Shown: in pieces, positions 12,965 through 56,123 of the stretch
Layout of the letters: every line of letters begins with the position of its first letter
Numbering within the stretch: position 1 is the first letter of the stretch
NCBI GenBank assembly: GCA_013239625.1
Contig: MU054391.1
Span: forward strand, 5,413,824-5,477,823
Direction: 5' to 3'
Source of the DNA: Lama guanicoe
Lineage: Eukaryota
Length of the DNA stretch: 64,000 nt
Program-made: the position numbers and the translations under genes
Notes under the pieces: generated by a model
The model's database searches: none
What the model was told of the DNA's origin: nothing
What the model saw: only the letters and a program-made list of their open reading frames with translations

Positions 12965-13051
12965 ATCAAACAGGCCCAAGATGAAGAAAGAAGGCAGTTG
13001 ATACAGCTTCGAGATATTTTAAAATCAGCATTGCAGGTTGAGCAGAAAGAG
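12965..13051 (+). CDS. ASAP2: ASAP2 exon ~9 (87 nt): IKQAQDEERRQLIQLRDILKSALQVEQKE
   Basis: ttttccaag|ATC...GAG|gtgagg; also visible inside ORF 12779..13102. Confidence 0.96.
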
Positions 13052-13224
13052 GTGAGGGGATTTAATTTTGAAGGACTGCTAATCTTGTATTTTCACCCCT
13101 AAGTCTCCGGGGCTCTGGGGCTGAGGAGGTGAGATCTTGGTCTTCCAGGTGCTCAGGTCACTCGCAACGCTGAGACATTTAGTTTTGTTCTTTAAGTCGG
13201 TTTTATAAAGCCATCTTTTTAAAT

Positions 13225-13302
13225 ATGCTAACCTCACTATAACTCAATAACTCAATAAATAAATAAATAATAAAGTTTAAAAAAGATACATGCTAACCTC
13301 AC
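13225..13302 (+). mobile_element. Extremely 5'-truncated retroposon insertion (~52 bp) with 13-bp target-site duplication
   Basis: atgctaacctcac at 13225-13237 and 13290-13302 flanks tataactcaataactcaataaataaataaataataaagtttaaaaaag; tttt/aa site at the left. Confidence 0.7.
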
Positions 13303-13960
13303 GGGGAAAGCATCACCATTGACGTGGCCTTACAGCAGCATTTTAACCTTTTCTGCTCCGCCCATTGCCACTAGACAAGCAGCCCTTGGCATCTCTGTCA
13401 CATGGACAGTCGTCATTCGTGCCATCAGTTCTCTCCCTGGAGCCCTGTGGTCTCCCTGCCCTGATACACGTGGACGCTGCCATGTGGCATCAGCGGGTGA
13501 CAGGTGACCATCTGAATCTTCCCGCCCAGAGATTGTATTCTGTAAAGCGGGAGGAGCTAGGTTTCCTTGGAGCTGCATTCTGATGGGAAGAAACCCTAGT
13601 GTTCTTGCATCTTCTCTTCCCTGTGATCACCTGTCTGTGTGCTAACACATTCACAGTGATAATTTGTCTTTTGGGAGCTCATTATAAAAAACCATTCAAA
13701 ATTAAATTTTAAGGTAATTTGATATGTTTGTTACAGTGAGGATATTATAATGTGAAATTTAACATAAATCCACTTCGTTGTCAATAAAGAAATATGTCTA
13801 AATGTATATAGCTAGTAGCTTTTAGATCAATAACTATTAAACTACCGAGCAGAGCATCAGGTTCACTGTTGGAAGTTGGGTATGCTGTATTTTAAGTTCT
13901 TGTACTATAACTGAATATTGTTGTTTTTCTCCCAAATGCATTTACCTTTTGTGACCGAAG

Positions 13961-13969
13961 TCTAGGAGA
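13961..13969 (+). CDS. ASAP2: 9-nt alternative microexon encoding SRR (BAR-PH linker)
   Basis: ...cttttgtgaccgaag|TCTAGGAGA|gtaagt; perfect donor; phase 0/0 between exons ~9 and ~10; upstream TGC and downstream TGCATG; matches the SRR insert I recall from ASAP-family isoforms. Confidence 0.85.
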
Positions 13970-15200
13970 GTAAGTAGTTCAGTATTTTAATAAATTATAG
14001 AAATTTGCATGCTTTTTTCATGAACTTCAAAAAAACCGATATTCTTTCCATGTCTATATTAATGGCTAGTAGTGTTTTTAATGTTTACTCTTCCTCTTTC
14101 AGTAGCAGTGGGTTTTATTAAAGGCTCAAGAATTTGAATGCATAAATATTAGTGAAATGGAAGTTTTCCACATTTACACTTTAGCCTTCGATGTCACTCC
14201 TTTGTGAAAGTGAAGCGGCTCGCCCCCTCCCCTTCCGCCGCACAGCTGAGTTCTGTGTGTCCTTCTAAGGCACCTTGAGCCCTGCGTCTGGAAGGCTGCC
14301 CCGGCTCACCCCAGCCCCGGTGATGTGCTTCGCACACTGTTTGAAAGACGTCTCTCAGTCGCAGTGTATAGAGTTTGAGGGTTGTTGGCCATGTCTGCAG
14401 GTGCACAGATGCTTTTTCTCCAGCTCCAGGTTGAAGATGCCCTCCTGTCTTCTGGGCCTTTCTGGCTATCACGCCATGGTACCATGTGGCTCATTTAGTA
14501 GGCTCTTGGTAAACATGGGTCAAAAGTGAGAGACTGGCAGACTGAGGGTCACGTGTGGTGCTGGGAATTACCCAGAGCACAGGGACTTCCTCCCAGTCTA
14601 GAGAATATAGGTCCTGACACTTTGATATTCTCAAACATGGAATAAAAGGAGAAAAAGAAAGAAAGAAAAAAAAGAACTCAAGAGTATGGAGAATATAGTG
14701 GCCTGATTGTGACCAGAAGAGGCAGCACTAATGTGGGAACCGGAATGCCACCAAGGCAGCCAGCTCTCCATTGGGCTCTTGTCCGAGGAGGAGGAGGATC
14801 AAACGCGTGAAGCAGAGCTCAGGTTAGAAATACAAGAGAGCAGATGTTGGCGTTCAGTAGCCTCTGGGCACAGTGCAAGGGCCATGTTTGCTTTGGCTGT
14901 GCAGAAGGAGGCGGTTTGGGAAAACTGGCTGTTGTCAGAAAGCTGGTTATGTATAGCTTTGCCGAAAGTGTAACAGATTTACCACCATAGACCAGAAGTC
15001 TTTTATGGTTTGCTGTTTCTGTGTTTTCTGTTGACCGGCCCGTCTGCCCTGGATTGCGCAGACGGGTCACGTGCATCTTCCTTACTGCTCTCCTTCGGCT
15101 CTGTGTCCAAAGAGCAAATTCACCGATTTCCTGGTTGTGAATGAGTCGTATTTTCTGTGTATCACACTCTGCATTGCTTTTTGATGATGGTATTCTGTAA

Positions 15201-21060: not shown

Positions 21061-21164
21061 GATTCACAACTTCGCCAGAGCACAGCCTACAGTTTACACC
21101 AGCCTCAGGGAAACAAGGAACACGGGACCGAGCGGAATGGCAGCCTCTACAAGAAAAGTGATGG
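21061..21164 (+). CDS. ASAP2: ASAP2 exon ~10 (104 nt): DSQLRQSTAYSLHQPQGNKEHGTERNGSLYKKSD(G), start of PH
   Basis: atttccag|GAT...GATGG|gtatgt; phase 0 to 2. Confidence 0.96.
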
Positions 21165-39884: not shown

Positions 39885-40095
39885 GGTACATTCTTAGTGC
39901 GTTAGTTTGGTGAACGTTTTCACCTGAGTTACCCCATTTTCCCATTGTTACAACCTGGCAAGGTAGGTATCATCCCCATTTTACTATTAACAAGTCGAAG
40001 CTCAGGTAAACTGACTTGCTTGGGGTCACAGAGCCGGCAAATAAAACCATGATTTGAACCCACATTTTGATTTCCTGGCCCAGCACCCTCTTCAC
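39885..40095 (-). mobile_element. MIR SINE
   Basis: aggtaggtatcatccccatttt...tgacttgcttggggtcacagagc...gatttgaaccc. Confidence 0.75.
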
Positions 40096-40472
40096 TGGGT
40101 GAGCCCCCCTTTCGCAGGTGTAGGTAAAGGGTGTTAGATCTCTGAGTTTCAGCTGGATCTCAGGGGTTCTGAGGGCGAGTTGCGGGGAGAGGGTGGAAAC
40201 TTGAATTGGGCCAAGTTTCTGCTCCGCCCTGCAGGTCCTCGTGCAGGGAATGCTTTATAAGAACACTCCCCTGTAACAGGCACACTGCCGCTTCTCTGGT
40301 TTTATGGGTACCTTTGGGGTTTGGGTTTTGTCCAACTTCATTAAAGGCAAACCACTTTATTGCTCTATTTCTTAGTGGCCATTAAATAAATCATCAGATG
40401 TGCAAGTGCTGTGTAGCAGTGGAAGGTATTATTAATAATTGAGCACCCTGAAATGGACTTTTGTTTCCACAG

Positions 40473-55927: not shown

Positions 55928-55986
55928 TGTGCGCGTGCATGTGTGCATGCCTGCGTGTGCGTGCGTGTGCATGTGCGTGCGTGTGC
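55928..55986 (+). repeat. Alternating (TG/CG/CA) purine-pyrimidine tract abutting the exon ~23 acceptor, with 3 TGCATG
   Basis: TGCATG at 55936, 55944 and 55968. Confidence 0.9.
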
Positions 55987-55988
55987 AG

Positions 55989-56123
55989 TTCAGCCAGCCT
56001 CCTCAGCTAACGCCCTGTGGAAGACAAACTCTGTAAGTGTGGACGGTGTAAGCAGGCAGCGATCTTCGTCAGATCCGCCAGCTGTCCATCCACCGCTGCC
56101 CCCTCTCCGCGTGACATCCACCA
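55989..56123 (+). CDS. ASAP2: ASAP2 exon ~23 (135 nt, symmetric phase 1/1, probable cassette): (V)QPASSANALWKTNSVSVDGVSRQRSSSDPPAVHPPLPPLRVTST
   Basis: gtgtgcag|TT...ACCA|gtacgt; length is a multiple of 3; weak splice sites. Confidence 0.93.

Follow-up and report, generated by a model that had tools for sequence, protein, structure and literature searches.

Within the window, a 64,000-nt stretch of the guanaco (Lama guanicoe) genome, nine intronic nucleotides are framed by an AG and a GTAAGT. Are they an exon, is this exon new, and what would its inclusion do to the encoded protein? A sequence-only reading had proposed a neural microexon in a gene of the ASAP family and, as a consequence of its inclusion, a kinase site of the PKA type which is split between the microexon and the exon that follows.

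The nine nucleotides and their host gene

The exon downstream of the nine nucleotides matches the PH structure of ASAP1 (5c6r), its best database matches carry the name ASAP2, and a protein named ASAP2 (P0033) maps exon by exon along the plus strand of the window, mostly with 75-100% identity. Judged by the BAR-PH-ArfGAP-ankyrin order of its translation and by this ASAP2-level identity, the host gene is ASAP2, an ASAP-type ArfGAP. Two paralogous exons were found on other contigs. Their translations read as ASAP1 and ASAP3, names which we take to be correct on resemblance to 5c6r.

All elements that had been named (the AG, the 9-nt exon coding for Ser-Arg-Arg, the GTAAGT donor, the TGC, the TGCATG and an AG-free stretch of about 60 nt) were recovered letter for letter and are collected in Table 1. 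The AG-free zone amounts to 62 nt, with the nearest preceding AG at 13895-13896. Both junctions, that of the exon ending EQKE at 13051 and that of the exon starting DSQL at 21061, are phase 0, so that inclusion of the microexon keeps the frame, as had been proposed. The upstream intron is similar in length between species (909 nt here, 1136 nt in mouse, 890 nt in zebrafish).

Table 1 Features of the ASAP2 microexon and its surroundings, with positions in the window.
Feature	Positions	Strand	Remarks
Upstream constitutive exon	12965..13051	+	End of the last BAR helix, terminates E-Q-K-E; phase-0 donor at 13052; helix end in models at residue 282-283
AG-free zone, 62 nt, with pyrimidine tract	13897..13958	+	Candidate branch point at about -51, predicted only
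UGC at -24 from exon start	13937..13939	+	Likely SRRM3/4 element
Microexon acceptor AG	13959..13960	+	Seen in the sequence
9-nt microexon, Ser-Arg-Arg	13961..13969	+	Identical in mouse, in the zebrafish chr17 and chr2 genes and in ASAP1 of the guanaco genome
Internal AG, alternative acceptor for a 4-nt form	13964..13965	+	Listed for zebrafish asap2a and asap1b
Donor GTAAGT	13970..13975	+	Full intronic consensus; exon position -1 is A
TGCATG, candidate RBFOX site at +37	14006..14011	+	GCATG core at +34 in locus L008; none near the ASAP1 exon
Downstream constitutive exon	21061..21164	+	Opens D-S-Q-L; putative acceptor Ser codon 21064-21066; PH N-terminal extension and first PH strand

Motifs of this kind also occur elsewhere. 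Gaps between AGs of at least 62 nt account for 51 of about 4,668 in the window (1.1%), and the chance of a TGCATG within 100 nt is about 2.6%. The intron holds 252 candidates of the form AG-(3n, 3-30 nt)-GT, of which 13 have an AG-free zone of at least 40 nt, and the microexon has the best donor among these 13. By donor score alone it ranks 8th of the 252, with a donor matrix that is approximate and with one masked N stretch of the intron outside the scan. When the whole window was filtered for an AG-free zone of at least 40 nt and a GTRAG donor, three matches were obtained on the plus strand, the microexon included, and three on the minus strand. The motif pattern alone is not unique, and its six occurrences on both strands would be compatible with a splice-like arrangement that has arisen by chance, with no exon behind it. 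What proves the exon is homology together with published junction reads: the identical exon has junction reads in mouse and zebrafish, it is present in ASAP1 of guanaco, and it is contained in protein models. For the orthologues a chance pattern is refuted, and we give it virtually no credence.

Two further in-frame small-exon patterns, at 14499-14525 and 40084-40098, combine GTGAG donors with AG-free stretches of 60 and 48 nt and are probably due to chance. The same probably applies to short direct repeats of 13-14 nt at 13225-13302 and 13904-13917, one copy of which overlaps the candidate branch-point region. Other repeats within 13100-14600 are short and unremarkable, and RNA folding of 13880-14030 is no better than that of shuffled sequence (z 0.26).

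Orthologues, the ASAP1 paralogue and regulatory flanks

Earlier publications already describe the exon together with its neural pattern and its regulator, so that none of these is new. The mouse transcript ENSMUST00000090834, which the source table gives without a gene name, is presumably Asap2. In the accessible part of that table, its chr12 exon TCTAGGAGA is listed as 'Annotated' with 338 junction reads, a conservation score of 5.87 and assignment to cluster Neuronal N1, and two zebrafish genes contain these nine bases as well (PMC7821500). In the accessible tables of a zebrafish study (PMC12626424), asap2a event DreEX0015082 is given as the orthologue of human HsaEX0006174, with a neural dPSI of +80 in fish and +70 in human and with eMIC values of -56 for srrm3/4 loss and +99 for overexpression in human cells. 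The flanking introns of DreEX0015082 (891/467) match those of the TCTAGGAGA exon on zebrafish chr17 (890/466; PMC7821500). The human event is identified through the orthology column and through human RefSeq models that contain SRR (XP_011508710.1, XP_054200363.1). These VastDB events and the mouse chr12 exon have the same nine nucleotides at the same junction as the guanaco exon, with no difference seen, and are its orthologues. An ASAP2 microexon is also included in the 13 conserved human-chicken neural microexons of PMC12871342 (Table 1, available in part).

With these tables, the claim of a neural, SRRM3/4-dependent microexon in an ASAP gene is borne out for the orthologues. The suggested VastDB lookup leads to HsaEX0006174, and the SRR insert which had been suspected to be known already is indeed catalogued, in VastDB events as well as in RefSeq-type models. 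The exon had also been called hidden. Calling ORFs ab initio does not reveal it, but RNA-guided annotation does, in both human models and in mouse. At the ASAP2 junction, the best 120 database matches comprise 17 with SRR, 93 that skip it, 9 with intron read-in and one unmatched. No xRR insert was found in the 91 of 150 50%-cluster representatives that span the junction, and the exon is thus not dated beyond fish.

Among open-licence full texts, we found no papers naming the event ids or the junction peptides. PMC8983780 was set aside as a published match, the ASAP2 exon 23 described there being a different exon, and so was PMC8395343, which names ASAP2 only in a reference. Exon 23 itself, which is TDP-43-regulated and alternative, is likely the exon of about 135 nt that is directly preceded in the window by a UG-rich tract (~55930-56123) with three TGCATG (55936, 55944, 55968).

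The ASAP1 paralogue of guanaco bears an identical 9-nt microexon (G000:C55226:24963785-24963793, minus strand, in L004), which is located 3,695 nt after the upstream and 776 nt before the downstream exon. It corresponds to the ASAP1 neural microexon (HsaEX0006155, DreEX0015055, DreEX0015073) and shares with that of ASAP2 the nine nucleotides, the junction, the TGC at -24, the GTAAGT donor and the resulting R-R-D-S. Both AG-free zones are long (74 nt in ASAP1 vs 62 nt in ASAP2). The ASAP1 exon is likewise SRRM3/4-dependent and is also included in beta cells (87% for asap1b). It differs from the ASAP2 exon by an extra TGC at -18 and by the lack of a GCATG within 150 nt downstream, the first one being at +266. 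In ASAP3 of the guanaco genome the intron is short and lacks the exon, and a Thr stands at the position of the acceptor Ser.

A scan of metagenome contigs for the exon pattern gave five loci (L008-L012). L008, which appears ASAP2-like, shares 76.8% identity with 13893-14015 over 125 nt, and L009 appears ASAP1-like. L010 and L012, which match the 18-base pattern, have AG-free zones of 12 nt and no TGC and were discarded as chance matches. A UGC at the same -24 offset is common to ASAP2 and ASAP1 of guanaco, L008, L009 and L011. According to the accessible part of bioRxiv 10.1101/2024.09.17.613571, the UGC that functions sits at an optimised, though not strictly required, position between branch point and AG, and the fixed -24 offset fits this description. 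We consider it likely that this UGC is the SRRM3/4 element of the ASAP2 microexon. A downstream GCATG occurs in ASAP2 and in L008, but neither near the ASAP1 exon nor in L011. An RBFOX site is thus plausible for ASAP2 only, and ASAP1 orthologues are neural and SRRM3/4-dependent in the published tables, as far as accessible, despite the lack of a nearby GCATG in guanaco ASAP1.

The exons of the SRRM3/4 (eMIC) programme have 3-27 nt, preserve the frame, possess a UGC between branch point and AG, a long AG-free zone and a strong intronic donor, and reside in genes for trafficking and GTPase regulation. The ASAP2 microexon, with its nine nucleotides, phase 0, AG and GT flanks, 62-nt zone, UGC, strong donor and a branch point that is predicted only, shows no difference in kind, including its type of host gene, and it is conserved in vertebrates both in the exon (mouse, zebrafish) and in the flanks (L008). 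We regard it as practically certain that the guanaco exon is the 9-nt neural microexon already known from ASAP2, located in the BAR-PH linker, with neural inclusion and SRRM3/4 dependence in its orthologues. In guanaco, inclusion is to be expected by orthology; of the 24 sequencing runs listed for the species, none bears a neural-tissue label.

The BAR-PH linker and the putative kinase site

Residues 6-284 of an SRR-bearing protein (P0029) align with the ASAP3 BAR structure 9jih, and its residues 294-418 with the PH structure. As SRR corresponds to residues 284-286, between the two alignments, it belongs to the BAR-PH linker. Of the 60 matches listed (out of 408), none is a solved ASAP structure that spans both sides of this linker. 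In AlphaFold models of a bat ASAP2 pair, the BAR helix ends at residue 282-283, and a low-confidence coil extends over residues 280-299 with SRR (pLDDT <50) and over 282-295 without it. Since the linker is modelled as such a coil, Ser 288 is predicted to be exposed. The pTM of the models is 0.41-0.44, and the BAR-PH orientation was left uninterpreted. Upon inclusion, the net charge of the linker changes from -1 to +1.

Junction translation and structure alignments confirm that inclusion yields R-R-D-S in the linker, as had been claimed, while the skip form reads K-E-D-S. The consensus for PKA is R-R-x-S followed by a hydrophobic residue. The putative site agrees with it in having Arg at -3 and -2, which is the case only in the inclusion form and in all inserts analysed (14 of 14 from fish, 17 of 17 from amniotes), and in its position in an exposed linker that is predicted to be disordered. 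It differs by an Asp at -1 and by a nearly invariant Gln at +1, which departs from the hydrophobic preference of PKA. Other basophilic kinases would fit equally.

Comparison of fish asap2a proteins suggests which part of the insert is kept. Of 120 matches, 14 have the insert (SRR in 8, ARR in 5, TRR in one), in each case followed by D-S. As the first residue varies and the Arg pair is constant, it is the Arg pair rather than the exon's own Ser that has been kept. However, the synonymous positions of the exon are also frozen across mouse, zebrafish and both guanaco paralogues, and splicing signals could thus account for the Arg codons.

The acceptor Ser is present in 119 of 120 ASAP2 matches and in 118 of 120 asap2a matches, the latter being the best 120 of 932 as ranked with a Ser-bearing query. 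The other two have Pro. In asap2b, none of 165 protein models has the insert (120 ranked by a query that disfavours it and 45 cluster members), and exon loss in this gene is deduced from such models. Among 60 columns of asap2b, that of the acceptor ranks second in variability (A, S, T, L, P, N, M, G), whereas the adjoining D, Q, K and Q are nearly fixed. In 24 hand-picked species-matched pairs, one of them matched by genus only, Ser is found in 24 of 24 asap2a but in 8 of 24 asap2b proteins. Over 35 columns, asap2b requires 46 parsimony steps vs 11 for asap2a, a rate of change about four times as high. At the Ser column the count is 6 vs 0 steps, which is also the case for three other columns. 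With rate scaling, about 1.4 steps are expected in asap2a at the Ser column, and the probability of observing none is about 0.24, so that the contrast between asap2a and asap2b is not significant; only two independent exon-less lineages were seen. Comparative support for a PKA switch is thus suggestive and not statistically significant.

The two asap2a proteins with Pro at the acceptor position (P0470 and P0532) are from killifish (named Nematolebias and Kryptolebias). If insert and Ser are coupled, the microexon is predicted to have been lost there.

Direct evidence for phosphorylation was sought in published data. No RRDSQ site occurs in the accessible tables of two rat neuronal phosphoproteomes (PMC8411114, PMC6415872), which do contain other ASAP1/ASAP2 sites; this negative result is weak, as the fully tryptic peptide has 5 residues and one of the tables is partial. 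Open-licence full texts on ASAP2 and PKA, on phosphorylation of the ASAP1 linker, on kinase sites in microexons and on islets gave nothing on the site by title or start of abstract, and in the same type of texts we found no precedent for a split kinase site, with the Arg pair from a microexon and the Ser from the next exon.

Possible consequences of inclusion

The PH domain's N-terminal extension (G325-Q331) contacts switch 1 of Arf1 and mediates much of the allosteric activation, as described in the accessible part of PMC12485133, where constructs begin at residue 325 and thus past the putative site. By our own register count, in which Y327 is the Tyr of GGYSMHQ, the putative acceptor Ser precedes the Tyr of this extension by 7 (ASAP1) or 8 (ASAP2) residues.

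We tentatively propose the following chain of events. Acting via the UGC at -24, SRRM3/4 would promote inclusion in neurons and probably, as for asap1b, in endocrine cells. Inclusion would add three residues and two charges and would convert K-E-D-S to R-R-D-S, and PKA or another basophilic kinase could then phosphorylate the Ser of the next exon. The phosphate, so close to the Tyr that contacts switch 1, would change the charge of the linker, and the altered charge may in turn change membrane or Arf engagement and BAR-PH coupling. We consider it quite possible, short of probable, that the whole chain including phosphorylation operates, such that a splice-gated site for a basophilic kinase tunes the activating segment in neurons. 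The broader version appears doubtful to us, namely that ASAP1 and ASAP2 have retained the split-exon site from before the divergence of fish and tetrapods and that this site places the N-terminal extension under cAMP/PKA-type control in neurons and endocrine cells only.

Phosphorylation may not be needed at all. Two Arg and a length of three residues might by themselves loosen the linker and tune the BAR-PH geometry as well as binding to PI(4,5)P2 or actin. Such an effect would agree with the shift in linker charge, with the constancy of the Arg pair next to a variable first residue, with the wider low-confidence stretch in the model with SRR, and with the phosphosite not being found in the two rat data sets. 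In addition, ASAP1 binds actin via a basic cluster in its BAR domain (PMC8902617, available in part). However, charge and length leave unexplained why the Ser is fixed in genes that bear the exon and free in asap2b, a contrast which itself lacks significance. We consider this explanation possible and take it seriously.

The effect on the protein could also be slight, with the nine nucleotides held mainly by splicing-signal constraint and the exon being one of many SRRM3/4 targets that are individually dispensable. This would account for nine bases that are identical, synonymous sites included, in mouse, zebrafish and two paralogues. It is also in line with zebrafish, where deletions of single microexons, asap1b among them, had mostly mild or no effects, and where, in the accessible part of PMC12626424, removal of the asap1b exon does not figure in the set of deletions that cause neurite or social defects. 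The latter result also speaks against the proposed chain with its kinase site. The asap1b RT-PCR primers, as read by hand, flank the same junction. However, the asap1b mutant retains the exon in asap1a and asap2a, and such redundancy can hide an effect. Moreover, the exon has been retained in both ASAP1 and ASAP2 since before fish and tetrapods separated, and its neuronal inclusion is near-full (94-99% in brain and neurons for asap1b in the accessible tables). A slight effect is unlikely in our opinion.

Finally, the internal AG could serve dosage control, as its use leads to a frame-shifting exon of 4 nt, by which the transcript would be directed to nonsense-mediated decay in neurons. The 4-nt form is the listed reference form in zebrafish asap2a and an alternative in asap1b (PMC12626424, accessible tables), and in guanaco its frame would encounter a stop near the end of the next exon (~21159-21161), from which decay is predicted. 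But junction reads from mouse and zebrafish call the 9-nt form (PMC7821500, accessible part), protein models hold the in-frame insert, and mismapping of reads at the GA-rich junction may have produced the 4-nt call. Dosage control is highly improbable, and we retain the 9-nt, in-frame form with its putative kinase site as the preferred reading.

If the preferred reading is correct, the site would have been missed by GAP biochemistry and by phosphoproteomics, as standard PH/PZA constructs start a few residues past it and trypsin leaves a peptide of 5 residues. The function of the ASAP2 microexon is listed as 'unknown' in the accessible Table 1 of PMC12871342, as it is for the majority of such exons. 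Should the split kinase site not be real, the exon is an ordinary member of a well-studied programme. If it is real, then in neurons and beta cells a microexon of three residues would link a trafficking enzyme to signalling by second messengers.
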